Positions 51,356 through 64,000 of a stretch of DNA of 64,000 nucleotides are shown piece after piece. A program made the translations under genes and the position numbers. How positions within the stretch are numbered: position 1 is the stretch's first letter; every line of letters begins with the position of its first letter. Below the pieces are notes generated by a model. It saw only the letters and a program-made list of their open reading frames with translations, was not told the DNA's origin and did no database searches. This DNA comes from Escherichia phage vB_EcoM-Pr121LW. Location of the stretch: the sequence record MH752840.1, one strand, 5' to 3'.

Positions 51356-51568
51356 ATGGATTTCCTCCTTTTGATATTTCACCGGACCAGATATTTTAAA
51401 ATTCTTAGAAAATCAGAAAATGGATCGAAAACTAAAATGGATTTTTTCAACACAGGCGCGGAAAATTGTGCCAATCTATCTAGCCGTTTGCACCATATTC
51501 GAAATCACCGTTCCAGATTTCCCACACATACACACCTCCCCGCCATACCTTTCTCCACTCACTCTTAG
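51356..51568 (+). CDS. basic His/Arg-rich hypothetical protein
   Basis: 70 aa; strong AGGAGG SD 7 nt upstream; sits inside repeat-rich region so coding status uncertain. Confidence 0.35.
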   Translation: MDFLLLIFHRTRYFKILRKSENGSKTKMDFFNTGAENCANLSSRLHHIRNHRSRFPTHTHLPAIPFSTHS

Positions 51569-51620
51569 TGATTTATGACGGAAAACCCATCACTATCAGT
51601 GAGTTGCGGTACAATTTTTC

Positions 51621-51800
51621 CAGTACTCGATCTACTTTTCATTTCATGGTTTGGATTTTCTGAAAATTTTTCTCGATAAATTTCTCAGTACTCGATCTGT
51701 TTTTCGTTTTCTGAATCGGATTTTCTGGAAATCGTTCCGGCTCTCGACCTGAAATTTTTGGGGACGAAATCGATTTTTCGTTTTCAGAAATGGATTTTTA
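51621..51800. repeat. AT-rich direct repeats with ~65-bp period (two good copies plus a degenerate third)
   Basis: CAGTACTCGATCT at 51621 and 51686; shared TTTTCnTTTTC…GGATTTTCTGRAAA tails. Confidence 0.7.
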
Positions 51801-51912
51801 AAATTTCTATATGGGAATATTTTATGGGGTACTGTTTTATAGGAAATTGTTACGGATGGTAATTAGCATGCTAATTAAATTTATTAAATGCGAGGAGTTC
51901 TCATTTAGAATT

Positions 51913-51931
51913 TTGAATGATAATCATTCTC
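51913..51931. promoter_or_regulatory. Fur-box-like palindrome (15/19 to GATAATGATAATCATTATC)
   Basis: ttgAATGATAATCATTcTC; core AATGATAATCATT is a perfect 6-1-6 palindrome. Confidence 0.35.
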
Positions 51932-51946
51932 GTTTGCAGAATAACG

Positions 51947-51969
51947 GGCAGGCCCGGTGATTGTCTCCC
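51947..51969 (+). repeat. GC-rich 23-bp element GGCAGGCCCGGTGATTGTCTCCC (copy A)
   Basis: Inverted copy at 61604-61626 (22/23 identical); variant at 52088-52121. Confidence 0.8.
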
Positions 51970-52048
51970 GGCCCCTACTGCCCCGGCTTGCTATTATAGT
52001 AACACACAGGACAAAGAAAGCAAGAAGTTTTTGCATAAATTTTTAGAC

Positions 52049-52067
52049 GATAATGATAATCGTTCTC
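52049..52067. promoter_or_regulatory. Fur-box-like site (17/19 to GATAATGATAATCATTATC)
   Basis: GATAATGATAATCgTTcTC; followed 20 nt later by GC element variant, repeating the arrangement at 51913-51969. Confidence 0.4.
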
Positions 52068-52087
52068 ATTTCATGCAGCGCCCATCC

Positions 52088-52121
52088 CCGGTGGTTGTCT
52101 CCCCCGTCACCGGTGCCTGCC
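52088..52121. repeat. variant GC element CCGGTGGTTGTCTCCC…CACCGGTGCCTGCC (copy B)
   Basis: Carries both halves of the 23-bp element in rearranged, partly inverted form. Confidence 0.6.
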
Positions 52122-52146
52122 GTCCTTTCGATAGGTATATTGTGCC

Positions 52147-52285
52147 ACCTGGCGGGGCCGCTGTCAACACTTTTCAAAAAATTTTTCTAACCTGATGCGC
52201 TAACCGCTGCAACCTGGCGGGGCCAGCCTGGCAGTACCTAACTGACCAGGTAGGAGAGAATGAAGGCTTGTAAACCTGGTGGGCC
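52147..52285 (+). repeat. three direct copies of ACCTGG(C/T)GGGCC at 62-65 bp spacing
   Basis: Copies at 52147, 52212 and 52274; related copies at 52451 and 59321. Confidence 0.6.
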
Positions 52286-52326
52286 TATGCTATAGGATAG
52301 GTAACAATTGAAGAGGAGGTACAAAA

Positions 52327-52503
52327 ATGAAAGGTAATATAATCCCCCTGGAAAATGTAGCTATTAATGACGCTGAGGCTATCGCCCTGGTTGAAAAGGC
52401 TATGGCGGGAGCGTTGGAACATAAAGAAGAGTACGAAAAAATGATGGTTAACCTGGCAGGGGCGGCGGCTGGAGAATTCTGCCCAAAAAATAATTTTACA
52501 TAA
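52327..52503 (+). CDS. small hypothetical protein (58 aa, not in ORF track)
   Basis: GAGGAGG SD 7 nt upstream of ATG; stop abuts next promoter. Confidence 0.45.
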   Translation: MKGNIIPLENVAINDAEAIALVEKAMAGALEHKEEYEKMMVNLAGAAAGEFCPKNNFT

Positions 52504-52506
52504 TGG

Positions 52507-52535
52507 TTGACAGCTCGGATAGTTCTTGTTATTCT
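52507..52535 (+). promoter_or_regulatory. sigma70-like promoter TTGACA-17-TATTCT
   Basis: -35 at 52507-52512, -10 at 52530-52535. Confidence 0.5.
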
Positions 52536-52587
52536 TATCCTCGCAAGGTGAACAACACCACACTAATTAACAAAGAGGATAAAAATC

Positions 52588-52785
52588 ATGAACGCATACG
52601 GAATCAAAGTACGTCGCAACACTCGCCAGGTGGTCACCGACCAAGTGATTTGCCGGGTGGATGTAACCATCAACAACGGGCAAGGCCTTTATAAATTTCG
52701 TCGCGGTCATAGCTATACCCTGCAACAGCTTAACCGTTGCGCCCTGACAAAAGGTCAGATCAACCACTGGTTTAATAAAAAATAA
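52588..52785 (+). CDS. small basic hypothetical protein
   Basis: 65 aa; SD/start context AAGAGGATAAAAATCATG. Confidence 0.5.
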   Translation: MNAYGIKVRRNTRQVVTDQVICRVDVTINNGQGLYKFRRGHSYTLQQLNRCALTKGQINHWFNKK

Positions 52786-52788
52786 ATA

Positions 52789-52817
52789 TTGACATATAGT
52801 CTGACACAAAATATACT
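52789..52817 (+). promoter_or_regulatory. sigma70 promoter TTGACA-17-TATACT
   Basis: -35 at 52789-52794, -10 at 52812-52817. Confidence 0.65.
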
Positions 52818-52849
52818 GAAATCACAAAAGACACTAAGAGGATAAAATC

Positions 52850-53248
52850 ATGAAAACCACAACCTTTAATTTTGATAATGCCGACTTCTCTTTTTCTGAT
52901 GTCAAGAACTGCCGCCGTGATCGTGGATTTTACAAGGCTTATAATCTGGTGGGCCTGGACGATGACAATAATTTGCACGAAGTAGCTGAGATCCGGTATT
53001 ATGCCGCCTCCAGCGGTAACACTCATTATTGCGTCTTTTGGATGCACGACAGCAAGAACAACAAGTACGGTTATACTGGTGGCAAGGCGAGCGGTCACGG
53101 TTATGATAAGGCCAATGCAGCACTTGAAAGCGCGTTAAATGCTATGGGGATCACTGCCAACGGCTGGATCTATGAAGATGAGTTTTTGTCAGCACTTGCT
53201 GCCCACCTGGGGTATAAAAAGCACATTGTGACATGCGCCCACGAATAA
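52850..53248 (+). CDS. hypothetical protein
   Basis: 132 aa; SD AAGAGGATAAAATCATG. Confidence 0.55.
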   Translation: MKTTTFNFDNADFSFSDVKNCRRDRGFYKAYNLVGLDDDNNLHEVAEIRYYAASSGNTHYCVFWMHDSKNNKYGYTGGKASGHGYDKANAALESALNAMGITANGWIYEDEFLSALAAHLGYKKHIVTCAHE

Positions 53249-53260
53249 AAAAAAAAAAAA
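53247..53260 (+). repeat. A14 homopolymer tract immediately upstream of promoter
   Basis: 14 consecutive A starting within stop codon of 52850..53248. Confidence 0.9.
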
Positions 53261-53263
53261 TTA

Positions 53264-53291
53264 TTGACACGCTGCAAAATTAAAGTAAACT
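53264..53291 (+). promoter_or_regulatory. sigma70-like promoter TTGACA-16-TAAACT
   Basis: -35 at 53264-53269, -10 at 53286-53291; A-tract upstream. Confidence 0.55.
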
Positions 53292-53301
53292 AGACACAAA
53301 A

Positions 53302-53320
53302 GGCGGGAATGTTTCCCGCC
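53302..53320 (+). promoter_or_regulatory. 5' leader hairpin GGCGGGA-N5-TCCCGCC
   Basis: 7-bp GC stem between -10 and SD; same stem recurs at 55813-55831. Confidence 0.6.
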
Positions 53321-53339
53321 AACACAAAGGAAAAAGATC

Positions 53340-53735
53340 ATGAATAAGAACGTACGCCGCATCATGAACGAACTGGCAAACGATGAAAAAATTATTGATA
53401 TGCATTTGGTCAACATTTGCCGCCGTTGTGTAACATATAACAACCGCGCCGCAAAAGCGCGTGAGATGAACGCAAAAGGCACCTTAAAGCCCTTTCAGGT
53501 GGTTGTAAAATCTATAGCTAATGCAGCAGGCCAGGCGCATGACCACAACAACGAGAGCACTAATATTGATCCGTCTTACGTAATGAAACGGATCCGGACT
53601 TGCAAGAATAAAGAGCAGGTGTATAACGTCATAGATTGGCTGGACTCCATGGGCGATGTGGTTTATAATAGGTTTTCTGCAGCTATCGAGATCCAGCTTG
53701 ACAGACTGGACGGGAAAGTACTGAAAACTTACTGA
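53340..53735 (+). CDS. hypothetical protein
   Basis: 131 aa. Confidence 0.55.
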   Translation: MNKNVRRIMNELANDEKIIDMHLVNICRRCVTYNNRAAKAREMNAKGTLKPFQVVVKSIANAAGQAHDHNNESTNIDPSYVMKRIRTCKNKEQVYNVIDWLDSMGDVVYNRFSAAIEIQLDRLDGKVLKTY

Positions 53736-53783
53736 GTTTATTTTTAGATGGCCTTGACTCCAGGGCCATCAATAAAGTAAACT
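53736..53783 (+). repeat. 45-bp repeated element copy 1: promoter with -35 TTGACT in loop of GATGGCC/GGCCATC inverted repeat
   Basis: TTTATTTTTAGATGGCCTTGACTCCAGGGCCATCAATAAAGTAAA identical at 54357 and 58075; -35 at 53754-53759, -10 TAAACT at 53778-53783. Confidence 0.75.
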
Positions 53784-53814
53784 AACCACAGTTGAGCGGA
53801 AAGGGGGCTTAAAG

Positions 53815-53934
53815 ATGAGTACTACACGCCAGCACACAAAGGTAACTATTATCGTTTGCATCATTGGTTACATCCTGGCGCAAATGTTGATGGGTAGCGC
53901 CAACGGTATCGCAAAATTTTTCTTAAACTTTTAA
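53815..53934 (+). CDS. small hydrophobic peptide (39 aa, not in ORF track)
   Basis: AAAGGGGG SD; predicted single TM helix IIVCIIGYILAQMLMG. Confidence 0.4.
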   Translation: MSTTRQHTKVTIIVCIIGYILAQMLMGSANGIAKFFLNF

Positions 53935-53962
53935 TTGACAAGCTAACTTAGATCAGTATACT
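53935..53962 (+). promoter_or_regulatory. sigma70 promoter TTGACA-16-TATACT
   Basis: -35 at 53935-53940, -10 at 53957-53962. Confidence 0.6.
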
Positions 53963-54012
53963 AAACACATAAACGGGAAAACTTCCCAGAACACACAAAA
54001 GGAGAAAACACC

Positions 54013-54354
54013 ATGACTACTATGACCGCCGCAGAAAAAGCTATGCAGATCGCTGCGCTGAAAAAACAGATCGCAGACCTTGAGAACAAGATCGATAACT
54101 TTGAAATCGACGAGGACAAGTACGACGAAAACTATGATGAATGGTTAGACGAGATCTACGGCGAAATTATGATCGGAAACATTTCTTTTCTTCCGTCGCG
54201 TATCCTCAAGGAGCTAGATCCTATCGCTTACCGCTGCGGATTTAGCGACTACATCGACAGCCTGGATATTGAGGACGATGAAGAATACCAGGAATTGCAG
54301 ACAGAGCTTGAAGAAGTGAAAGAAGAGCTTTCAGAGCTGGAAGAAAACGAGTAA
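54013..54354 (+). CDS. acidic coiled-coil hypothetical protein
   Basis: 113 aa; AAGGAG SD; Glu/Asp-rich C-terminus. Confidence 0.55.
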   Translation: MTTMTAAEKAMQIAALKKQIADLENKIDNFEIDEDKYDENYDEWLDEIYGEIMIGNISFLPSRILKELDPIAYRCGFSDYIDSLDIEDDEEYQELQTELEEVKEELSELEENE

Positions 54355-54402
54355 ATTTATTTTTAGATGGCCTTGACTCCAGGGCCATCAATAAAGTAAA
54401 CT
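54355..54402 (+). repeat. 45-bp repeated element copy 2 (promoter in inverted repeat)
   Basis: -35 TTGACT 54373-54378 between GATGGCC 54366-54372 and GGCCATC 54383-54389; -10 TAAACT 54397-54402. Confidence 0.75.
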
Positions 54403-54443
54403 TTACACTGTTAACACTGAACTAATACAGAGGAGTTAAAACC

Positions 54444-54689
54444 ATGGCCGCACTAATTACCAAATATTACGCCCCTACCAACACCAAAAGCGCCCGTATC
54501 ATGGTAAAAGGCTTCGGACGTAAAAAGGTTTACACCTGGGATTATTCCCTAGACATGGAAGACAACTACACCAACGCGATGACCGATTTTATTAACGAGC
54601 TGAATACGCGGATCTTAACAAATTATAAAATTACCGACATTGCTTATATAGGTGAAGGCGGGATCTGTTTTGTAGGCATTGTGAAATAG
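54444..54689 (+). CDS. hypothetical protein
   Basis: 81 aa; GAGGAG SD. Confidence 0.55.
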   Translation: MAALITKYYAPTNTKSARIMVKGFGRKKVYTWDYSLDMEDNYTNAMTDFINELNTRILTNYKITDIAYIGEGGICFVGIVK

Positions 54690-54737
54690 TTATTTTTTCG
54701 GTGGTCCTTGCTGCAGGGCCATCTATAAAGATAATTT
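54690..54737 (+). repeat. diverged copy of the 45-bp element with CTTGCT-17-GATAAT
   Basis: TTATTTTTTCGGTGGTCCTTGCTGCAGGGCCATCTATAAAGATAATTT; partial inverted repeat retained. Confidence 0.5.
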
Positions 54738-54764
54738 ACTAACACCATGAAAGGAGAAAGTAAC

Positions 54765-55118
54765 ATGATCAGCGGGGCTAGTTTTATTATTGGCGCTATT
54801 GCTACGGCTTTAATTGTAAACAAGATCCAGGATAAAAAGGAAAGAGGAAGTACCGCCCTTGCAGAATATCCATTTTGGACATTCAACGATAACGAAGATT
54901 ATATTGTAAAGTATAAAAATAAAGAAGGTTACCAAGTAACACCGCGACCGATCCCTGCTTACAAGATGCAGGAAACACTATACCGCCTGGAGGCGGGGGG
55001 CGCAAAAATTGTAGACTTTTGGGGATACGATCACACAGATCAGGAAGCTATAAAGCGACGTATCAGGGCTATTCAGGCCAATATTGAAGTTAGCAAGGGG
55101 GGAATATATGAAGATTAA
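54765..55118 (+). CDS. hypothetical protein with N-terminal hydrophobic segment
   Basis: ORF track 54747; ATG 54765 after AAAGGAG preferred. Confidence 0.5.
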   Translation: MISGASFIIGAIATALIVNKIQDKKERGSTALAEYPFWTFNDNEDYIVKYKNKEGYQVTPRPIPAYKMQETLYRLEAGGAKIVDFWGYDHTDQEAIKRRIRAIQANIEVSKGGIYED

Positions 55119-55305
55119 TTTTGAGAAAATTGTAAAGCGATCTCATGATTCCGAAGAGCTGCCGGAACGCCGCCAGCGTAACAATAAACTGAATAAGCCA
55201 AAAAGATTTGGGAAGATCTGGCGGAATCATTATGATCGTAAATTGCCGGGCCTCCTTTTGGAACGTGAACGGCAGGCGGAACGATACCGCCACAAAGGCA
55301 ACTAA
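55106..55305 (+). CDS. small basic hypothetical protein
   Basis: ORF track 55084; ATG 55106 after AAGGGGGG preferred; overlaps upstream stop. Confidence 0.45.
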
Positions 55306-55313
55306 CAACCAAC

Positions 55314-55342
55314 GCCCCGCCATAGTGCGGGGCTTTTTATTT
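55314..55342 (+). terminator. rho-independent terminator GCCCCGC-CATAGT-GCGGGGC plus T5
   Basis: 7-bp GC stem followed by TTTTTATTT. Confidence 0.75.
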
Positions 55343-55464
55343 CTATCCTACGAATAGCGCCCCTGGTTGGCCCTGTAAGCGCCAAAAAGCCCCCCCACCT
55401 ATGCAATCGCCCCCTTTAACCTGAAAACATCGCCCAGGGCCGTTTTATGGCGTTAAAAATATCA

Positions 55465-55492
55465 TTGACATCGTCAACAGGTTAGCTATACT
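55465..55492 (+). promoter_or_regulatory. sigma70 promoter TTGACA-16-TATACT
   Basis: -35 at 55465-55470, -10 at 55487-55492. Confidence 0.6.
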
Positions 55493-55524
55493 AACCACAT
55501 CAAAGAGAGAAAGGAGTAAACGCC

Positions 55525-55785
55525 ATGCGTAAATTAAAAAATTTTGATAAAGTTGATGTTATCCTGAATAATTTCTACTACTGCAACAACAAGGCTATTT
55601 GGTGGCGTGATAGTTCCACCGATAAAGTCAAGGCGCGCTTTCTTCAGGGGCATTGGCAAGGCCGCCCAGTGATTAAAATCATGGGGCAATTGGTAGCGTT
55701 TAAAAATTGCCGCCGTGTTGATGACGTTGAGGAGATTTTAAACATTTTGCGCCACAATAATTTAAAAAATAGTGTTGACAAGTAA
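55525..55785 (+). CDS. hypothetical protein
   Basis: 86 aa; AAGGAG SD. Confidence 0.55.
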   Translation: MRKLKNFDKVDVILNNFYYCNNKAIWWRDSSTDKVKARFLQGHWQGRPVIKIMGQLVAFKNCRRVDDVEEILNILRHNNLKNSVDK

Positions 55786-55802
55786 ATCTCAATAAGTATA
55801 AT
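55775..55802 (+). promoter_or_regulatory. sigma70 promoter TTGACA-16-TATAAT
   Basis: -35 at 55775-55780 overlaps upstream stop; -10 at 55797-55802; leader hairpin at 55813-55831. Confidence 0.65.
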
Positions 55803-55859
55803 TAAACACACAGGCGGGAAAACTTCCCGCCACCAACAAAGAAAACAGGAGAAAATATC

Positions 55860-56483
55860 ATGACCACCGTTAACATTACCACAGGTTACAATTTATCTTT
55901 CGACGTGCTGACCGACGAACAAAAAGAAAAAGCCGTTGAAATGGTCCGCGAAAGAGAAGAACACAGCGGGGATAACTTTTTTGCAGAAAGTGTAATTGAA
56001 TACTATAAAGAATATGTTTTTCCAGAGTACGGGCTTGAAGATACAGATGTACATTGGTCCGGCTTTTGGTGCCAGGGCGACGGCGCGTCAATTAGCGCTG
56101 AAAATGTAAACTTAGAAAAATTCTTGCGTAAAGTCAAGTCTTTGACTAAATTCCGCTCAATTCGTCACTTGTTCGGCACAATGCACGATGGCGAGCTATC
56201 CGCAAGCGTTGAGCGTATCCCGTTTAGCCATTATCACCACGAAAACACAATAGGCGGGTGCATCGATACCAATTGGCTAGACCTGACCACCAAGCAAGAG
56301 GATAAAGTTGAAGAGCTGGAAGAGCTGATCACCGAGACGGTACGGGAGCTATCCCGCAAGGTTTACGTAGACCTGGAGCAAGCCTATCTTGAACAATTCA
56401 CTACCGAAAACCTGATCGGCCTTATCGAGGCCAATGATTGGCGGTTTGATGTGGATGAATATGGCGAGATGACTTTTTCATAA
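55860..56483 (+). CDS. acidic hypothetical protein (207 aa)
   Basis: CAGGAG SD; Asp/Glu-rich. Confidence 0.55.
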   Translation: MTTVNITTGYNLSFDVLTDEQKEKAVEMVREREEHSGDNFFAESVIEYYKEYVFPEYGLEDTDVHWSGFWCQGDGASISAENVNLEKFLRKVKSLTKFRSIRHLFGTMHDGELSASVERIPFSHYHHENTIGGCIDTNWLDLTTKQEDKVEELEELITETVRELSRKVYVDLEQAYLEQFTTENLIGLIEANDWRFDVDEYGEMTFS

Positions 56484-56491
56484 ATAAAGTG

Positions 56492-56519
56492 TTGCAATAA
56501 CCTAAAAACCTGCTATATT
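56492..56519 (+). promoter_or_regulatory. sigma70-like promoter TTGCAA-16-TATATT
   Basis: -35 at 56492-56497, -10 at 56514-56519; leader hairpin G6CAA…TTGC7 at 56529-56551. Confidence 0.5.
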
Positions 56520-56576
56520 AAAACTCAAGGGGGGCAAGACGTTTGCCCCCCCACACAAAACAAAGAGGAAAACATC

Positions 56577-56957
56577 ATGAAAAACACTACTAAAGCTATT
56601 GACACCGTCATGTTTAACCTGGTTACCTTTCGCGAGGATATGAAAGATCTTCCACGTGAAACAGTGTGCGATCACATTGAAAACTATCGCAAACTAATCA
56701 AAGAGTTGCCTTTAAAACGTGACCAGTATGCGGCTAACGCTATGCTCAACGCCATGATCAAAAAGATGATTCAGTGTGATTTAACCATGGCCTATGATTA
56801 TGCAGGTGGTCGTTTTGCAGTATACAATCAGCCCGTGCCTGGTATGGGCACCACCGAAGAATTGCACGCGCTCAATCTAAAACAAGACGTGTGGGATAGT
56901 ATGCCCCGCGTGGTGGTGTGGGCAGAAAGCGGAAAGATTTACGGCGATAATTTTTAA
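56577..56957 (+). CDS. hypothetical protein
   Basis: 126 aa; AAGAGGAAAACATCATG context. Confidence 0.55.
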   Translation: MKNTTKAIDTVMFNLVTFREDMKDLPRETVCDHIENYRKLIKELPLKRDQYAANAMLNAMIKKMIQCDLTMAYDYAGGRFAVYNQPVPGMGTTEELHALNLKQDVWDSMPRVVVWAESGKIYGDNF

Positions 56958-56966
56958 TCAGGTAAC

Positions 56967-56992
56967 AGGCGGCATATTTGCCGCCTTATTGT
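56967..56992 (+). terminator. candidate terminator AGGCGGCA-TATT-TGCCGCCT
   Basis: 8-bp stem, then TATTGTT (weak T-run). Confidence 0.45.
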
Positions 56993-57021
56993 TAAACAGA
57001 ACTGCAAAAGAGGTACATAGA

Positions 57022-57393
57022 ATGGAATTTATTATTTTGGCTGTATTGGTTGCCTTGTTTAACGCCTGGATCGCTGGCAAGATAGGTAGATCCGCCTTTT
57101 TATGGTTTATTATATCTATTTTCCTGGGGGTGGTTGCAACTATTGTATTGGTTATCCTTGCAATTGTTGACAAGGGGAATAATAGAAAGGGTAAAGTATT
57201 TTCAGACCTGTACGACGCTCAAACGTTTGTCAACGCCTATTATAGTGATCTTCCAGTCTCCCTACGCTGCAGCCTGGCACAACAGGTTTTTGATGAGGCT
57301 AAAACCAGAGATCAAGCCCACGAGATATGTTTAACTGAGGCGGATCGCCTATTTGAGAGGAATAGAAAATATGTGGGCCAACCGTTTAAATAA
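57022..57393 (+). CDS. small membrane protein (two predicted TM helices)
   Basis: ORF track 56989; ATG 57022 after AAGAGG preferred. Confidence 0.5.
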   Translation: MEFIILAVLVALFNAWIAGKIGRSAFLWFIISIFLGVVATIVLVILAIVDKGNNRKGKVFSDLYDAQTFVNAYYSDLPVSLRCSLAQQVFDEAKTRDQAHEICLTEADRLFERNRKYVGQPFK

Positions 57394-57503
57394 TGCCACG
57401 TTAATTAATCCCTTTAGTGAAGATTTGAAGCCAGCCGCCTGGCGTGACGGATTCAATAACGAACGCTTTATTTTCAGGCCTGATCTTGAGGAATTTTATA
57501 ACA

Positions 57504-57629
57504 ATGGATCGAACAACAGCGGAGATAATTTTTCTTGTGGTGTGCGTCGTGATAGGACTCCTGGGGGCCATTGTAAACCACGTCACTACTACCAGAAGGA
57601 AAGGGGGAGACGATGACAACCAAGGATAA
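57504..57629 (+). CDS. small membrane peptide (41 aa)
   Basis: ATG 57504 after GAGGA; TM helix IIFLVVCVVIGLLGAIV then charged tail; conflicts with alternative frame 57371..57616. Confidence 0.35.
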   Translation: MDRTTAEIIFLVVCVVIGLLGAIVNHVTTTRRKGGDDDNQG

Positions 57630-57732
57630 GCCCAGCACCGATAAGGTGCGCCGGGTTATGGTATGGCTGGAGATCATCGCCCTTGAAATATTGTTAGGCG
57701 TAGGGATGTACTTTATCGCTGTAAGTAACTAA
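57613..57732 (+). CDS. small membrane peptide (39 aa, not in ORF track)
   Basis: AAAGGGGGAG SD; TM helix VMVWLEIIALEILLGVGMYFIAV; followed by terminator. Confidence 0.4.
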   Translation: MTTKDKPSTDKVRRVMVWLEIIALEILLGVGMYFIAVSN

Positions 57733-57737
57733 GAACG

Positions 57738-57766
57738 GCCCCCGATCATGGGGGCTTATCTTTTTA
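57738..57766 (+). terminator. rho-independent terminator GCCCCC-GATCAT-GGGGGC plus T-run
   Basis: 6-bp GC stem followed by TTATCTTTTT. Confidence 0.75.
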
Positions 57767-57787
57767 AAAAATTTTTCTTCCAGGGTG

Positions 57788-57815
57788 TTGCAATCCGGTC
57801 CGGAATGTGGATAAT
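57788..57815 (+). promoter_or_regulatory. sigma70-like promoter TTGCAA-16-GATAAT
   Basis: -35 at 57788-57793, -10 at 57810-57815. Confidence 0.5.
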
Positions 57816-57871
57816 GACAATCAACGGGGAGCTAATCCCCACCAACACAAAAACCAGAAAGGAGAAACAAA

Positions 57872-58072
57872 ATGAGCAACAATATCCGCGTTATTAACTT
57901 CAAAAAAGAAGAAAAAATTGCCGTGCTGATTGACGGTCAAGAAATCTTCAAGGGCGACTATGAAGATCATCAAACGGCGATTAGTATCACTCGCGTGATT
58001 GGTTACCATAATTTTTACCCCCAAGGCGCTGAGGCAGCGATTAAACGAATCAAAGAGATTGTAGGCCTGTAA
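57872..58072 (+). CDS. hypothetical protein
   Basis: 66 aa; AAAGGAG SD. Confidence 0.55.
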   Translation: MSNNIRVINFKKEEKIAVLIDGQEIFKGDYEDHQTAISITRVIGYHNFYPQGAEAAIKRIKEIVGL

Positions 58073-58073
58073 A

Positions 58074-58121
58074 ATTTATTTTTAGATGGCCTTGACTCCA
58101 GGGCCATCAATAAAGTAAATT
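58074..58121 (+). repeat. 45-bp repeated element copy 3 (promoter in inverted repeat)
   Basis: -35 TTGACT 58092-58097 between GATGGCC 58085-58091 and GGCCATC 58102-58108; -10 TAAATT 58116-58121. Confidence 0.75.
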
Positions 58122-58165
58122 TAAACCCTGTTAAAATACCACGCAGTTAACAAGGAGTGATAGAC

Positions 58166-58465
58166 ATGTTTATCCAGGCTAATAATCTTTATTTCTTTGA
58201 TGGTCAGATCGTAGATGGTGTGGAAGTGGAGATCACCGGGTGCCCTGGCGGTCAGGCTATGACTTTTCGGAATAATGCCTTTAATGATTCTCATATCGTT
58301 ATGAGAATGGAAGTTACGAAGCTGGATGACAAGAAAACACTTATTGACTATTCTGTGAAAGATCATCCAGACTACCACATGATCCATGGTGATTTGTGCA
58401 CTGTTGACCGTGACAAGGTGGGCGGCATCGTGATCGCTATTGTGAACGATGTTTTCTCAAACTAA
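58166..58465 (+). CDS. hypothetical protein
   Basis: ORF track 58157; ATG 58166 after AAGGAG preferred. Confidence 0.5.
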   Translation: MFIQANNLYFFDGQIVDGVEVEITGCPGGQAMTFRNNAFNDSHIVMRMEVTKLDDKKTLIDYSVKDHPDYHMIHGDLCTVDRDKVGGIVIAIVNDVFSN

Positions 58466-58482
58466 TTTCAACAGGTGATTTT

Positions 58483-58833
58483 ATGAAAGTTAAATTATAT
58501 TACCTTAATGAGCTTAACCCCCTTGCCCAGGTCCGCGCCCTAGCTAATACCTTGATTTGTGAGAAATCTGTATATTGTGTTGAGCTTAACGCTATGCGTG
58601 AACGTCTCAAAGGTGGTTACTTTAACATCCATGCTGCAATCAACGGCCTGAATATGGAATTTATCCGTTTACGTAACAGCCGCCGGAATCTGGCAAGAAT
58701 GGAACAAGATCCGGCCCACCTTCGTAAGCTGGTTATTGAAAATCATCTGATGTTTAATGCCGAGGGTGATTATTACCATTTTCACCGCAAACGCTGGTAC
58801 CGTGGCGGCAATACAGGCAAGAATGCAAAATAA
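58483..58833 (+). CDS. hypothetical basic protein
   Basis: 116 aa. Confidence 0.5.
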   Translation: MKVKLYYLNELNPLAQVRALANTLICEKSVYCVELNAMRERLKGGYFNIHAAINGLNMEFIRLRNSRRNLARMEQDPAHLRKLVIENHLMFNAEGDYYHFHRKRWYRGGNTGKNAK

Positions 58834-58870
58834 GGCCCCAGGCAGGGCCTACAGCGACCTAAACACTAGC

Positions 58871-58902
58871 AGGCTATGCAATCGCATAGCCTTTATTGTT
58901 TT
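58871..58902 (+). terminator. rho-independent terminator AGGCTATGC-AATC-GCATAGCCT plus T-run
   Basis: 9-bp stem followed by TTATTGTTTT; a second hairpin AGGCCC-CAGGCA-GGGCCT lies at 58833-58850. Confidence 0.7.
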
Positions 58903-58949
58903 GACGTTACAACGGCCCTAAGGCGCTTAAAAAATTTTTAAAGAAGTAC

Positions 58950-58977
58950 TTGCATCATTCCCGACAATATGGATAAT
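58950..58977 (+). promoter_or_regulatory. sigma70-like promoter TTGCAT-16-GATAAT
   Basis: -35 at 58950-58955, -10 at 58972-58977. Confidence 0.5.
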
Positions 58978-59035
58978 AAGAGTTGTCGAGGGGGGAGGCC
59001 CCCAATCATTGACCAGATAGATAGGAGTTAAAATC

Positions 59036-59320
59036 ATGGCTATTGTTACCGCTGGCGATGTAGTAGAAATGGAAGCAAAATACTTAAAAGAGGGTATGCA
59101 TATCCTACGGAATGATCAAGAGTTATTATTAACGATGGTTGACTATAATCCCGGCCAGGATTATCCAAGCATCGACTACTTTTTTGAGTATGTTAATGAA
59201 GAGTTGAAAGAGGATGAGGCCTACTGCGGTGAGTTCTGCAACTTCTTTTGTCCTGATGAGGTTGTAAAGGTTATTTATCAACCTGGCGTAGCTTTCCCGC
59301 TGCACGCTATCAATAAATAA
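59036..59320 (+). CDS. acidic hypothetical protein
   Basis: 94 aa; TAGGAG SD. Confidence 0.55.
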   Translation: MAIVTAGDVVEMEAKYLKEGMHILRNDQELLLTMVDYNPGQDYPSIDYFFEYVNEELKEDEAYCGEFCNFFCPDEVVKVIYQPGVAFPLHAINK

Positions 59321-59384
59321 ACCTGGCGGGGCCGAAAAGGCCCCTACAGCATAAAATTATGAAAATAAAGAGAGGTAAATCATC

Positions 59385-59618
59385 ATGATGGAACAAATTA
59401 AACGCACCGAGGCTATTAATGGCAATGTGATCTATTTTGTTAGCAAAAACGAAAAAGGCGTACCATATGCGGCGGTAATAGTACAACCTGACGGCGATTA
59501 TTGGTTTACTGTGTACGGCGCTTATTCTTTTGGGCGTCCAGTGCATGATAAAATTTTGAAAGTAGCGAACCCTACCGGGAAGAATATCACAGCAGAAAAA
59601 TTTTTTGAAAATAGTTGA
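59385..59618 (+). CDS. hypothetical protein
   Basis: 77 aa; AGAGAGG SD; ACCTGGCGGGGCC motif and GGGGCC…GGCCCC hairpin in leader. Confidence 0.5.
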   Translation: MMEQIKRTEAINGNVIYFVSKNEKGVPYAAVIVQPDGDYWFTVYGAYSFGRPVHDKILKVANPTGKNITAEKFFENS

Positions 59619-59642
59619 CATGACCATATAAAACTGTAATAT
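59615..59642 (+). promoter_or_regulatory. sigma70 promoter TTGACA-16-TAATAT
   Basis: -35 at 59615-59620 overlaps upstream stop; -10 at 59637-59642. Confidence 0.55.
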
Positions 59643-59693
59643 ATAAATCAAAGGGAGCAACAAGCCCCACCAACCACAAAGAGGATAAAAATC

Positions 59694-59873
59694 ATGGCTA
59701 TTATTGCAAAGACCGAGATCGTAGGCTTAGATTCTATTCTCCTCGCATATGAGGAAGCTATAGAAATGTATGTGGTTTCCTATGGTGAGTATATCCGTGA
59801 ATATGAATCTATTGATCTAGCTTTTGAATGTTATATTCGCCAGGTTAATAAAGCGTACGATGATTATCGTTAA
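59694..59873 (+). CDS. small acidic hypothetical protein (59 aa, not in ORF track)
   Basis: AAGAGGATAAAAATCATG start context identical to other array genes. Confidence 0.45.
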   Translation: MAIIAKTEIVGLDSILLAYEEAIEMYVVSYGEYIREYESIDLAFECYIRQVNKAYDDYR

Positions 59874-59965
59874 AATAGTTTGACAACAAACAACCATCTA
59901 ACAAAGCATAATACATAAGGTGGTAGAATGATCCGCCACCCCGGAACAAAGAAGAGGTAAACATC

Positions 59966-60211
59966 ATGAAAAGCAATAAAGGTTATAACGGTTACAAAAA
60001 CAAAACTCATTGGAATGTAAGCCTTTGGATTAATAACGATGAGTCATTGTACCGGTTGGCCCAAGGCTTTATTAACGCTAATGCTAATCGTAATGATGCG
60101 GCGCGGGATATGATGCTTTTTCTGGAGCTAACCGGACAAGATAAGACCCCGGACGGCTTCAAGTACAGCACTACGGCGATCCGTGCCGCGATGGTTGGAA
60201 TGAAACACTAA
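59966..60211 (+). CDS. hypothetical protein
   Basis: 81 aa; AAGAGG SD; leader hairpin GGTGG…CCACC. Confidence 0.55.
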   Translation: MKSNKGYNGYKNKTHWNVSLWINNDESLYRLAQGFINANANRNDAARDMMLFLELTGQDKTPDGFKYSTTAIRAAMVGMKH

Positions 60212-60288
60212 AAGCACATAGCCGCCTTACCCTGGGGCTGTGGTAGCGGCCCCATGAATAAGGTTACTAACAGAAGAGAATAAACACC

Positions 60289-60393
60289 ATGAAACAGAAA
60301 TTAATCGATGCAGTGATCTTGATTATTGCCCTGGGTATTGGCCTGATTGCAACCATGTCTAATATGATCTTGTCTTCCAACGGTATCGGGTGA
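60289..60393 (+). CDS. small hydrophobic peptide (34 aa, not in ORF track)
   Basis: TM-like AVILIIALGIGLIATM; weak SD GAAGAG. Confidence 0.3.
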   Translation: MKQKLIDAVILIIALGIGLIATMSNMILSSNGIG

Positions 60394-60402
60394 GGTTGGC
60401 AA

Positions 60403-60618
60403 ATGATCACTAACAAAACGGGCAAAACAGAATTTTTACGCAACTTACAGATCGGCAAGCCTGAGATCTGGTACTGCACTAAAACACCGCGTGACGAAAT
60501 GAAAGACTTCACCGCCACGCTGCAACGGGTAAAGATATCTATCACGCAGAAAAAGGCCTTACTAGTGGTGGAAGGGGAGATCCCCCAAACCGTTGTTATA
60601 GTTGAGCGTACCGCATAG
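60403..60618 (+). CDS. hypothetical protein
   Basis: 71 aa. Confidence 0.45.
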   Translation: MITNKTGKTEFLRNLQIGKPEIWYCTKTPRDEMKDFTATLQRVKISITQKKALLVVEGEIPQTVVIVERTA

Positions 60619-60709
60619 TTTAATTTATACCGATACCCGAAAATTAACCAACAAATCATAAACAGGCGGTTACCGCCGCCTTAAACGTAGCAGAAAGAGG
60701 ATAGGCACA

Positions 60710-61000
60710 ATGAAAAAGATGATCGCAGTGGTTGCCCTGGTTGTTGGACTTAGTGCGCCTGCAATGGCTAATGAGCTGGCAAAAGAGGTTAATCTAACGG
60801 ATATTCATGCCGTCAATCGAATCGGGGTTACTTATCGCTTATGCCTTGCCACTAAAACTTTTAGTGACGGTACAACAGAGTACTACGGATTCGAGGGTAT
60901 CCGGTGCGGTGAACTTGCTCGCGACCTTAAGGAAGATCCAGACCTGGAAGATTTGCCGATGACGGTAAACGGTAAAGCTTACGTAAACCGCCAACAATAA
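60710..61000 (+). CDS. secreted/periplasmic small protein
   Basis: 96 aa; signal peptide MKKMIAVVALVVGLSAPAMA; AAGAGGATAGG SD. Confidence 0.55.
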   Translation: MKKMIAVVALVVGLSAPAMANELAKEVNLTDIHAVNRIGVTYRLCLATKTFSDGTTEYYGFEGIRCGELARDLKEDPDLEDLPMTVNGKAYVNRQQ

Positions 61001-61016
61001 GTAAGGGAGATGTAAA

Positions 61017-61208
61017 ATGAATACTGAACAAGTTAGAAAGGTATTGGCGGTACTGCGTTATCATAATCATAGAAAGGTCATAGACGATCCTGATTATGTT
61101 GATTCAAGCCTGGAAGAGGATACACTACAAGCTATAAGTAACATGCACGAATTGCTAAAGCGCATGACAGAGAAAAACCGACCTGACTACATAGGGGGTA
61201 AAATATGA
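61017..61208 (+). CDS. hypothetical protein
   Basis: 63 aa; AAGGGAG SD. Confidence 0.5.
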   Translation: MNTEQVRKVLAVLRYHNHRKVIDDPDYVDSSLEEDTLQAISNMHELLKRMTEKNRPDYIGGKI

Positions 61209-61516
61209 TCGCTATTACGCCAACCGTTTTAGATTGGTATCGGCAACGTATAGCGCCACCGCTGGCTATCTTCAAAGATGCGGAAGCAAAACAACGCCGG
61301 ATCTCAATACATGAGATCATCAACCTTAACGCTGGAGGCACACCATACCGCCCAGGACCTGGCCGTGAGATGGACAATACATTGGCGATCCTGAAGATAC
61401 GCCGTAAACGGTCCTCCCTTACGCTGGATTCATTACACACAATGCAGTCTCCGTTCCAGGTGACTGGGAAACGGATCGCCAGGTCCTGGACAAAGGCCAA
61501 TGACCGGACCGTATAA
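61205..61516 (+). CDS. hypothetical protein
   Basis: 103 aa; ATGA overlap with upstream gene. Confidence 0.5.
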   Translation: MIAITPTVLDWYRQRIAPPLAIFKDAEAKQRRISIHEIINLNAGGTPYRPGPGREMDNTLAILKIRRKRSSLTLDSLHTMQSPFQVTGKRIARSWTKANDRTV

Positions 61517-61603
61517 ATAAAAAGTGTTTTGGTACTGATTTTGGGGTTGACTTGTTCGGCCCCTTTTGCTATTCTTATTAAACGGGCGGCACTTGGGAAC
61601 AGG

Positions 61604-61626
61604 GGGAGACAATCACCAGGCCTGCC
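61604..61626 (-). repeat. GC-rich 23-bp element, inverted copy C (reverse complement GGCAGGCCTGGTGATTGTCTCCC)
   Basis: 22/23 identical to copy A at 51947-51969 in opposite orientation. Confidence 0.8.
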
Positions 61627-61651
61627 TGTCATATAAGAACTATAAAAACCG

Positions 61652-61680
61652 TTGACATCTGCCATGGGGTGGGGTAACAT
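61652..61680 (+). promoter_or_regulatory. sigma70-like promoter TTGACA-17-TAACAT
   Basis: -35 at 61652-61657, -10 at 61675-61680; leader hairpin GGGCA…TGCCC at 61691-61704. Confidence 0.55.
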
Positions 61681-61733
61681 TATCTTGAAGGGGCAAAGGT
61701 GCCCACACAACAACCAGAAGAGAGGAAAACACT

Positions 61734-62942: not shown

Positions 62943-63549
62943 TCTGTATTTCTCCTACCACAAACGGCCCCACCTGGCAAGTGGAATAATTGACTAGCCA
63001 TCAATCCCACACACTGTACAAATATACATGTAAAATAGCTATTGCATAATCTTTCATTGTGTGGTAGCAGGGCCATTTTTACACGTTTTTCCTTCCAAAA
63101 TTGCACGTAATGCAGCTATTGCACAAAATTTAACCTGATGCATATCTTCAGTGTCCTGTCAACAACTAAAAATCTTTATAAGTCATACACTTACACAACC
63201 ACAAAAGCGTGTTCTACGTGAAAAATCGGGTATAACTATAGCCACTAAATTCCAGAATTCACGTAGCGTCACCATTCTATAGTCTGCTAAGCATTTATTC
63301 CAACCATAGAATAACGGAATAGTCAATACCTGCATAAAATAATTATTCGTTTAAACTGCATAACATAAATCAGCCAGGGTGTCAACATTTTTCGTAAACA
63401 GTCAGAAATTGTCACGGTTAGTTATCATAAACAGAGAAATATTTAGTTGTCTAATGTTTACTGTACATTACTATATTGACTGGAATCATTAGATGACTAA
63501 GAGAAAGATAAGAAATAATTAACAATACAACTATTTTATCCGTAACAAT

Positions 63550-63743
63550 AAGGCAACTATGCAAACGAATGGCATGGCGCGACGGAGTCGCGACATAATA
63601 TAAAAGCAGTAACCATCACCCCCGTGATAGTTTGTCTGCAAACTATTAATCAGATCATAGTTGCCTTGTATTTAGTTAATCATGACATAACAAGCAAGGC
63701 AACTATAGATCTGCTAATAGTTGCCCTGCTTTTATATTATGTC
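63550..63743. repeat. palindrome/iteron cluster: four copies of AAGGCAACTAT in alternating orientation, 18-bp inverted repeat pair, CGCGAC-GGA-GTCGCG palindrome
   Basis: Sites at 63550, 63657(rc), 63696, 63717(rc); GACATAATATAAAAGCAG at 63592-63609 and its reverse complement at 63726-63743. Confidence 0.8.
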
Positions 63744-63836
63744 ATATATTATTAACCTGTTAATTGTCAGCTTATTGGCTGTTAGCTTGTCAATTGTTAA
63801 CTTGCTAATTGTTTTCATGCAAACGAATGTCATGGC
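63559..63836. repeat. 20-bp direct repeat ATGCAAACGAATG(G/T)CATGGC (two copies)
   Basis: Copies at 63559-63578 and 63817-63836. Confidence 0.8.
63757..63815. repeat. short tandem AT-rich repeats (TTAATTGTCAGC / TTGTCAATTGTTAAC / TTGCTAATTGTT)
   Basis: Four imperfect 12-15 bp units in tandem. Confidence 0.6.
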
Positions 63837-63849
63837 TTATCATCTTTGT

Positions 63850-63895
63850 GTAAACTGTCAAGGTGTAAACTATCCAGGCGTAAACAGTCTATGCA
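63850..63895. repeat. three tandem GTAAAC-containing ~15-bp units
   Basis: GTAAACTGTCAAGG / GTAAACTATCCAGG / GTAAACAGTCTATGCAGG. Confidence 0.6.
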
Positions 63896-64000
63896 GGAAC
63901 AATCTATACGTGAACAGTGAAACATGAAATAATAACGATTGTTATTGTGTCATATTGTGCTGCAGTGTGTTATGTTGTGCCCAGTGTGTCCAGTATGTCA

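Follow-up and report, generated by a model that had tools for sequence, protein, structure and literature searches.

Why should a GC-rich 23-mer stand in inverted orientation on either side of a 9.7-kb array of small early genes in a virulent phage? The question arises in a 64,000-nt stretch of Escherichia phage vB_EcoM-Pr121LW (MH752840.1), a Vequintavirus of the rV5-like type; the whole stretch is called the window here. The sequence GGCAGGCCCGGTGATTGTCTCCC at 51947-51969 (+) returns as its reverse complement with one mismatch at 61604-61626, and a preliminary description of the locus, made from the letters alone, suggested recombination sites, boundaries of an invertible or exchangeable cassette, or operators for a common regulator. 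The repeat itself was borne out: 100 dinucleotide-preserving shuffles gave no match at up to three mismatches, and the inverted arms lengthen to 29 nt with 90% complementarity (51941-51969 versus 61604-61632). The rearranged variant that had been described near 52088-52121 is likewise real, with the core GGGAGACAACCACC at 52090-52103 (-). The 14-nt core GGGAGACAAYCACC occurs three times in the window, at 51956-51969 (-), 52090-52103 (-) and 61604-61617 (+), and an nhmmer profile search of the window recovered these three copies and no others. Since the complete genome of the Vequintavirus isim (138,289 bp) also holds exactly three copies, in orthologous places, the element is not a dispersed repeat, and the many copies throughout the genome that would have refuted the earlier suggestion were not found. 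The explanation we prefer, to which we would assign an even chance of being correct as a whole, is that three paralogous copies of a promoter-proximal leader element are present and that the 23-mer corresponds to their conserved core, made up of GGGAGACAAYCACCGG and some 12 nt of 3' flank.

Left copy B (51939-51988, minus strand; 23-mer at 51947-51969, core GGGAGACAATCACC at 51956-51969) matches the pattern exactly (nhmmer E = 1e-7) and has orthologues in at least seven genera. Left copy A (52073-52124, minus strand; E = 6e-4) carries GGCAGGCACCGG 5' of the core in place of CCGGGCCTGCC 3' of it, and this copy was kept in all Vequintavirus genomes examined. The right copy (61584-61634, plus strand; 23-mer at 61604-61626; E = 1e-9) has orthologues in Certrevirus, Phapecoctavirus and Justusliebigvirus. 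Both left copies lie inside a non-coding gap, 51570-52327, which probably starts as early as 51312 and within which the rV5 record places 'ORF198'.

The arrangement of the predicted promoters explains the inverted appearance. Between each copy and the -10 box of a predicted sigma70-type promoter, upstream of it on the same strand, there are 22-36 nt, and 14 out of 14 units from at least seven genera have a same-strand promoter whose -10 box ends 7-22 nt before the element; the promoter scan detected no consistent promoter on the other strand of these units. For copy A, the leftward promoter region (52139-52188, minus strand) comprises TTGACA-17-CACAAT (52167-52139) with an upstream TG, 10 of 12 consensus matches and a scan score of 12, as well as an A/T-rich upstream element, AGAAAAATTTTTTGAAAA; this upstream element and the -35 box recur at the array promoter 59594-59620. 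The sequence ACCTGGCGGGGCC was found at 52147, 52212 and 59321, the first of these being the spacer of the copy A promoter read on the other strand, and a close variant, ACCTGGTGGGCC, lies at about 52274. Copy B is preceded by a promoter-like region (51993-52023, minus strand) with a perfect -10 box TATAAT at 51998-51993 and a weak -35 box, the scan favouring TTGCTT-16-TACTAT (score 8.5); orthologues of copy B have strong promoters (TTGACA-16-TATTAT in the relative L006 and TTGATC-16-TATTAT in GAP31), and transcripts from the copy A promoter may reach copy B as well. The right copy follows a terminator-like stem-loop combined with a promoter (61543-61575, plus strand), in which the -35 box TTGACT is located in the loop and is followed by an extended -10 box, TGcTATTCT (TTGACT-17-TATTCT with TG, 61547-61575; score 11). 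It has the same design as terminator/promoter units repeated within the array, and this promoter and the element are conserved jointly in distant genera. Read from these promoters, the left copies are transcribed toward the left and the right copy toward the right, in both cases out of the block, and it is this divergence that makes the repeats look inverted.

Comparison with relatives indicated which parts of these units are retained. The region of the left copy is 95-96% identical to isim and V5 (rV5), and that of the right copy is 98-99% identical to Murica and isim. At larger distances, where the flanking DNA can no longer be aligned, the left copy together with a Fur box retains 75-88% identity in Seunavirus GAP31, Henunavirus Hena1, Mydovirus Mydo, Certrevirus and Pectobacterium and Klebsiella phages, and also in Phapecoctavirus phAPEC8, a member of another subfamily. 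The right copy and its promoter align in Certrevirus, Phapecoctavirus and Justusliebigvirus. Among 29 non-redundant copies the positions ...A.CAC... are invariant and GGAGACAAYCACCGG is nearly invariant. The separation of the outward pair is about 8.4-9.7 kb in Vequintavirus, 10.2 kb in F2M1E, about 9 kb in phAPEC8, 9.8 kb in BME3 and 7.2-7.5 kb in Mydo-like contigs. Taken together, a unit of predicted promoter, GGAGACAAYCACCGG core and putative Fur array is conserved as outward-facing pairs in Vequintavirinae and Stephanstirmvirinae. Most of the IMG/VR contigs retrieved with a Fur-box 20-mer and with a right-type 16-mer were unrelated, and these scans became usable only once they had been filtered with the nhmmer profile. 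No fewer than three right-type copies, GAACGGGGGAGACAATCACCGGGG, were seen in a metagenome contig of 46.8 kb (L016/L022, IMGVR_UViG_3300027123_000194), for which no DNA match was found among phage records; a TATAAT box precedes each of these copies by about 22 nt, and a T-run comes after it. The element is thus not confined to the two subfamilies. In the left region of Seunavirus, Mydovirus, Henunavirus, Certrevirus and Phapecoctavirus a second conserved non-coding element, CTACCGGCGATCCACCTTCC...CCTGGTATGTTAGCCCCGCCTTTTCGCCGTGGGGTGGCG (L002 1668-1750, also in L003, L004, L005 and L273), lies downstream of a promoter of its own, in the position that copy A takes in Vequintavirus; it was not found in the window and had no match in Rfam. 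In addition, some 15-20 records named 'Campylobacter phage' (MG0656xx) were 90-99% identical to this E. coli Vequintavirus and are most likely mislabelled or contaminant.

The suggestion that the copies enclose an invertible or exchangeable cassette can be judged against the same relatives. As recombination sites, the repeats would be crossover points at which the 9.7-kb block is inverted or exchanged, and the 29-nt inverted arms, the hyperplastic gene content of the block and a mosaic of left-B and right copies (see below), suggestive of non-crossover exchange, are what such a view can draw upon. However, no inversion was seen in more than 100 genomes: the relative orientation of left and right copies is constant in each genome where both were located, and whole-block matches, among the matches listed, run on a single strand. 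Neither invertase nor resolvase nor integrase is annotated among the 229 features of isim. The block is indeed the more variable part, being present at a coverage of at least 80% in 82 records as compared to 110 records for the neighbouring 9.8 kb, and single genes of it occur in unrelated phages, so that the idea of exchange is partly supported, as far as gene content is concerned. It is not supported for the repeats as boundaries: 2 kb across the left copy are contiguous in 112 of 122 related records, the left end of homology always runs through the left copy, which is never a breakpoint, and the right-hand breakpoints are spread over about 58.4-61.2 kb, with a recurrent one at 61564. The latter falls into the terminator/promoter cassette about 40 nt upstream of the 23-mer and not into the 23-mer; this cassette differs between V5-type and window-type genomes, whereas the element itself is kept. 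The breakpoints of this hyperplastic block fall inside it or at the terminator-promoter that precedes the right copy, and the unit and its promoter are conserved where the content of the block is entirely different. Nor do the repeats bracket 'the' array of small genes, as had been described, since further small genes and consensus sigma70 promoters (+) were found at 43-51 kb as well as at 61.7-62.9 kb. Given the constant orientation, the lack of a left breakpoint and of an annotated recombinase, and the promoter-driven genes outside the bracket, the inversion or cassette reading is unsupported, and we regard a recombination site as highly improbable.

A different kind of relationship between the two ends emerged from the sequences that flank the core. 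Left copy B and the right copy share the variant of their 3' flank in genomes where both were read: it is GGCCTGCC at both places in the window, in isim and in one metagenome contig, GGGGTGCC in V5 and WM, and GGACCTGCCCGCTAT in F2M1E, while FV3 and YN3 have GGGGTGCC at left-B and, at the right copy, AGGGGTGCC (FV3) or GGTGGTGCC (YN3), each with a single nearby substitution. An independent origin of an identical two-base change at sites 9 kb apart is not plausible. The next positions of the right copies are mosaic, reading TGTCAT, TGTTAT, or CGTTAT as in left-B, a pattern that looks like gene-conversion tracts of differing lengths. The likeness of left-B and right copies implies either gene conversion or selection by one shared reader, both of which fit a concerted change. 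In this sense, the suggestion of operators for a common regulator stands in spirit, all copies being promoter-proximal and on the strand of their promoter, with left-B and right changing in concert.

Taken literally, that suggestion amounts to a double-stranded DNA operator, at whose asymmetric core one sequence-specific phage or host protein would switch three promoters off or on, as a roadblock at +15 to +45 and with no role for RNA. Such an operator would account for a core that is conserved as sequence rather than as base pairs and for weak thermodynamic fold support; moreover, co-variation of left-B and right within genomes would be expected for sites read by one co-evolving protein, and the element adjoins another predicted protein-binding array, namely the Fur boxes. 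By contrast, the distance from the -10 box varies between 22 and 36 nt, and the differing sequences of the lineages can still form a closing helix: every copy can close an imperfect hairpin of 40-45 nt around the core with lineage-specific sequences, for example GGGCA/UGCCC, GCGGG/CCCGU, CAGGCACC/GGUGCCUG or GAGGGG/CCCCU. The element strand folds more stably than its complement in 25 of 29 copies, and in the small hairpin of right-type copies, C(C/U)UG-GNRA-C(A/G)GG, changes are restricted to G-C or A-U becoming G-U, one-sided changes which fit one strand only. A candidate regulator did not come to light: ten proteins tested, eight mostly basic ones from the array and the products of genes just downstream of the right copy, all belong to PHROG families of unknown function. 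Overall, a purely DNA-based operator seems to us unlikely. Among the array proteins is a basic one of 65 amino acids (pI 10.8; 55108-55305) with an arginine-rich stretch, PERRQRNNKLNKPKR, which belongs to a PHROG family of unknown function and is a possible candidate for an RNA-binding reader, if the element has a protein reader. Searches for known signals were negative: the best case for an ops element of RfaH (GGCGGTAGnnTG, carried by the non-template strand of a leader) was left-B GGCAGTAGGGGC, which agrees with GGCGGTAGCGTG at 8 of 12 positions, and the motif is absent from the other lineages; as to antisense targets, only chance 9-10-mers complementary to the core exist elsewhere in the window. 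In permissive Rfam scans, which covered the left region and four distant loci, the sole match was one to the Lst thermometer (E = 0.15) that is attributable to chance.

Alternatively, the element might do no more than stabilise the 5' ends of early transcripts as any stem-loop would, its copies having arisen as regulatory cassettes were shuffled and having no specific reader. Other early transcripts of the array do start with G+C-rich stem-loops (e.g., GGCGGGAAAACTTCCCGCC; 53291-53328, 53962-53999, 55803-55840 and 61690-61705), which are followed by a CA-rich leader and a Shine-Dalgarno sequence and are probably 5' stabilisers, and terminator-promoter cassettes are repeated in the array. However, those stem-loops differ freely, whereas two subfamilies have kept the core of the element almost without change; the element is, moreover, associated with Fur boxes and sits at fixed genome positions. 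We thus give little credence to a generic stabiliser.

The coupling to sites resembling Fur boxes is the second component of the unit. Downstream of copy A, at 52049-52067 (about +65 to +83 of its predicted transcript), GATAATGATAATCGTTCTC deviates at two positions from the 19-bp Fur consensus GATAATGATAATCATTATC; the chance expectation for an equally good match in the window is 0.04, and in isim no other site with three or fewer mismatches exists. Downstream of copy B, the palindrome TTGAATGATAATCATTCTC at 51913-51931 (about +55 to +73) has four mismatches to the 19-mer, contains a perfectly palindromic 15-nt core, GAATGATAATCATTC, and is kept in GAP31, Hena1, Mydo, phAPEC8, F2M1E and BME3; a further degenerate box lies at 51886-51906. 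In relatives across the two subfamilies, one to five tandem Fur-like boxes, about 30 bp apart, follow the left copy (L002 1497-1540, L005 1463-1565, L273 1950-2100 and L279 11897-11991). The window has Fur boxes at the two left copies only; a Fur-like box is also present after the right copy in CR3, F2M1E and Mydo-like contigs, from which it follows that the ancestral unit consisted of promoter, element and Fur boxes. In BME3 and KPP-1, Fur boxes additionally occur inside or beside the direct terminal repeat. The predicted boxes lie at about +41 to +83 from the predicted starts and overlap neither the -35 nor the -10 box, as Fur operators would; no consistent promoter overlapping them was found on either strand, the opposite strand showing no conserved pair of hexamers at an acceptable spacing.

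We therefore return to a promoter-proximal signal, carried by RNA or by the non-template strand and coupled to Fur, rather than a site of inversion or exchange, and our belief in this interpretation is about equal to our doubt. As a cis-acting signal, the element would target the transcription complex or the emerging RNA. It could be recognised in the form of an RNA hairpin, the apical loop of which would be purine-rich (GACAA, as in boxB of P22), or in the form of non-template-strand DNA. Host Fur bound at +41 to +83 would gate, in an iron-dependent manner, the extension of the outward transcripts that carry no open reading frame (ORF), and the likeness of left-B and right copies would have been maintained by gene conversion or by selection through one shared reader. 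Whereas copy number, conservation, the linkage to predicted promoters, concerted change, near-consensus Fur boxes and the absence of inversion were observed, the activity of the promoters, an action of the element on the transcription complex by way of RNA or the non-template strand, and a control of elongation by Fur are inferred. Several observations weigh against this proposal. The promoters and start sites are predictions, and the copy B promoter has a poor -35 box in the window. The predicted leftward transcripts contain no ORF and are antisense to the upstream genes, which leaves processive or gated transcription with no evident target. With respect to structure, fold z-scores against shuffles average about -0.8 with few copies standing out, RNAalifold gave no consensus structure over all 29 copies, an apical GA-GACAA-UC can form, with one compensatory change from A-U to U-A in GAP31 and Mydo, but the apical pairs are broken in copy A, CR3, the left copy of phAPEC8 and the right copies of Stephanstirmvirinae, and the whole window had no match in Rfam at gathering thresholds. 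Furthermore, Fur sites downstream of the start are an unusual geometry for Fur repression, and in Klebsiella phage KPP-1 the second copy is located past the terminal repeat and in direct orientation.

The leftward transcripts would enter a region with peculiarities of its own. Downstream of them, three direct repeats of about 65 nt with TGGATTTT are located at 51613-51798 (+), and they look like iterons or protein-binding sites; the motif TGGATTT is found additionally at 51357 and 51438. The plus strand of the 64-kb window has 11 TGGATTT in all, 4 of which are crowded into 450 nt at this place. Erwinia phage Hena1 has a comparable triple repeat (L003 1250-1430). Some of the TGGATTT repeats are overlapped by 'ORF199' of rV5 (51356-51568), for which isim has no annotated counterpart. 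A perfect 18-bp palindrome, TAATTAGCATGCTAATTA, at 51860-51877 separates the direct repeats from the Fur boxes. Among 5,426 E. coli genomes none had anything similar to the left region, and a host origin was rejected. R-loops are known to prime DNA synthesis at T4 oriF and oriG and at ColE1, and the units could be origin or primer promoters of this kind, their G-rich leaders forming R-loops that prime leading-strand synthesis into repeat-rich, A/T-rich DNA. The leaders are indeed G-rich on the non-template strand (18-25 G versus 14-15 C, with runs of GGGG or GGGGG), the left units are directed into 1 kb of non-coding DNA that contains the iteron-like repeats, and no ORF lies downstream of them. 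However, a pair of outward origins separated by 10 kb would be out of the ordinary, genes follow immediately in the path of the right unit, nothing ties Fur to the firing of an origin, and the GC-skew profile reflects transcription polarity only; a function in replication is, in our estimate, decidedly unlikely.

Regarding coding sequences at the copies, the two ORFs at 51917-52195 (+) and 61132-61713 (-) exist as described and share the peptide TGRPGDCLP, and both are spurious artefacts of the repeat: one has no Shine-Dalgarno sequence and spans promoters, Fur boxes and elements, and the other is antisense to real genes. They can be removed from the annotation, one of them being ORF198 of rV5. 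A minus-strand ORF of 43 amino acids (52036-51905, MQKLLAFFVL...) was rejected as coding, as it lacks a Shine-Dalgarno sequence and covers a promoter and a Fur box; neither the right copy nor GAP31 keeps the frame open.

Literature searches brought up no paper dealing with Fur boxes or with these repeats for rV5-like phages, and the rV5 genome paper does not mention them. The rV5-like and phi92/phAPEC8-like phages are common coliphages of broad host range, used in therapy and biocontrol, the regulation of which is almost unstudied. The module formed by an orphan host-type promoter, the 15-nt leader motif and tandem near-consensus Fur boxes is among the most conserved non-coding modules of the group and is found at fixed places near the genome end, which makes the role of the outward, gene-less transcripts a testable question. 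Near-consensus predicted Fur boxes in a strictly lytic phage also raise the question whether the phage reads the iron sensor of its host.

Compared with known systems, the locus shares individual features with several of them. The invertible segments of the Gin, Hin and Cin systems also have inverted repeats of about 26 bp around a segment of several kb, and the flanking arms of 23-29 nt resemble these, a feature that is not diagnostic alone; here, however, no invertase gene is annotated, no second orientation appears in the genomes and the repeats lie inside predicted transcribed leaders. The Fur boxes of enterobacterial iron-regulated promoters have in common with the predicted boxes the near-consensus 19-bp palindrome and the tandem arrays about 30 bp apart. 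Those boxes cover the -35 and -10 regions, whereas the ones predicted here are found downstream of the promoters (+41 to +83); no gene follows them, and the phage is virulent.

The position of the block relative to the genome end invites comparison with T5. Direct terminal repeats of 514 bp and 342 bp have been reported for KPP-1 (PMC9862379) and BME3 (PMC12210895), respectively; for one Vequintavirus there is a prediction of headful packaging (PMC13211470). In KPP-1 and BME3 the terminal repeat lies in the non-coding zone where two gene blocks converge, the equivalent of which in the window begins at about 62.9 kb. This zone of the window (62990-64000) is non-coding and A/T-rich (GC 0.35 in the last kb) and contains the repeat families GTAAAC(N)GTC, ATAGTTGCC and, twice, TGCAAACGAATG(G/T)CATGGC. 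The BME3 record begins at the terminal repeat; its right unit is at 2.0 kb and points to the end, its left unit is at 11.8 kb of 147 kb and points inward with tandem Fur-like boxes (four by consensus scan, five by eye), and two more Fur boxes lie within the terminal repeat. The bracketed block thus corresponds to the first ~8% of the genome from the physical end in BME3 and ~6% in KPP-1, with its genes pointing toward the end. In T5, the injection-stop signal is a non-coding region of repeats, a palindrome, hairpins and host-factor boxes, and Vequintavirinae share the daunorubicin sensitivity of T5-like phages (PMC13250531). The likeness to the first-step-transfer region of T5, a region type that takes up about 8-9% of the genome from a physical end, would consist in a block of small genes driven by host polymerase at the physical end, as mapped in relatives, and in its termination at a repeat-rich non-coding region with palindrome, hairpins and host-factor boxes. 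The latter are DnaA boxes in T5 and predicted Fur boxes here, and the terminal repeats of T5 measure 10 kb as compared to 342-514 bp in the relatives.

It is therefore conceivable, if unlikely, that the block and the terminal non-coding zone form a first-entering 'pre-early' segment in a linear genome whose terminal repeats are short, and that the 1-kb left region with its repeats, palindrome, leader elements and Fur boxes gates the entry of the remaining genome. The genes beyond such a gate point toward the entering end, hence their transcription could not pull DNA in; instead, the ORF-less, interior-directed promoters and their leader would supply polymerase-driven internalisation as in T7, with Fur downstream as a stop or gate, as has been suggested for the DnaA boxes in the injection-stop signal of T5. 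If this were true, a virulent phage would tie its commitment to infection to the iron status of the host. We treat the resemblance to T5 first-step transfer as a lead and not as a finding.

With regard to the preferred leader element, the closest parallels are cis-acting signals of early transcripts. In lambda and P22, nutL and nutR are likewise two inverted short elements near the 5' ends of divergent early transcripts, and they are alike within a phage and different between phages, as is the leader element. Moreover, the pentaloop GACAA of P22 boxB is the same as the putative apical loop here (nutL GCGCTGACAAAGCGC (-) and nutR (+) in the P22 record), and all 14 of the 14 units have a nut-type placement in the 5' part of divergent transcripts, as judged from predicted promoters. 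However, boxA (CGCTCTTA / TGCTCTTTA) had no match within one mismatch in the leaders of the three copies, the stem under the loop, which in boxB is short and closes a GNRA-like pentaloop, is without covariation support, no N-like protein was recognised among the ten proteins tested, the left transcripts lack genes into which antitermination could lead, and Fur boxes come after the units. Lacking a boxA and a recognised N-like protein, the comparison with nut sites concerns the mode of action and not family membership. The putL and putR sites of HK022 are promoter-proximal cis RNAs on both divergent early operons, which act on RNA polymerase without a phage protein. Such independence would fit the lack of a recognised N-like gene here, whereas the put RNAs are two-stem structures of about 70 nt and no comparable conserved structure was demonstrable for the element.

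Finally, PeSL (promoter-early stem-loop) units, reportedly described by Arbiol and colleagues in 2010 as mobile regulatory cassettes of T4-type phages, resemble the array in that a stem-loop and an early sigma70 promoter form units between the small genes of a hyperplastic region. Units of this type occur here at 53737-53793, 54356-54412, 54690-54746 and 58075-58131, each 57 nt in length with a terminator-like stem-loop GATGGCC...GGCCATC, the -35 box TTGACT in its loop and a -10 box thereafter, as well as at 61543-61575, and the recurrent homology breakpoint falls at the cassette upstream of the right copy. What sets the present locus apart is the 23-mer, an extra element downstream of the cassette which is found at three promoters only and is conserved far more deeply.

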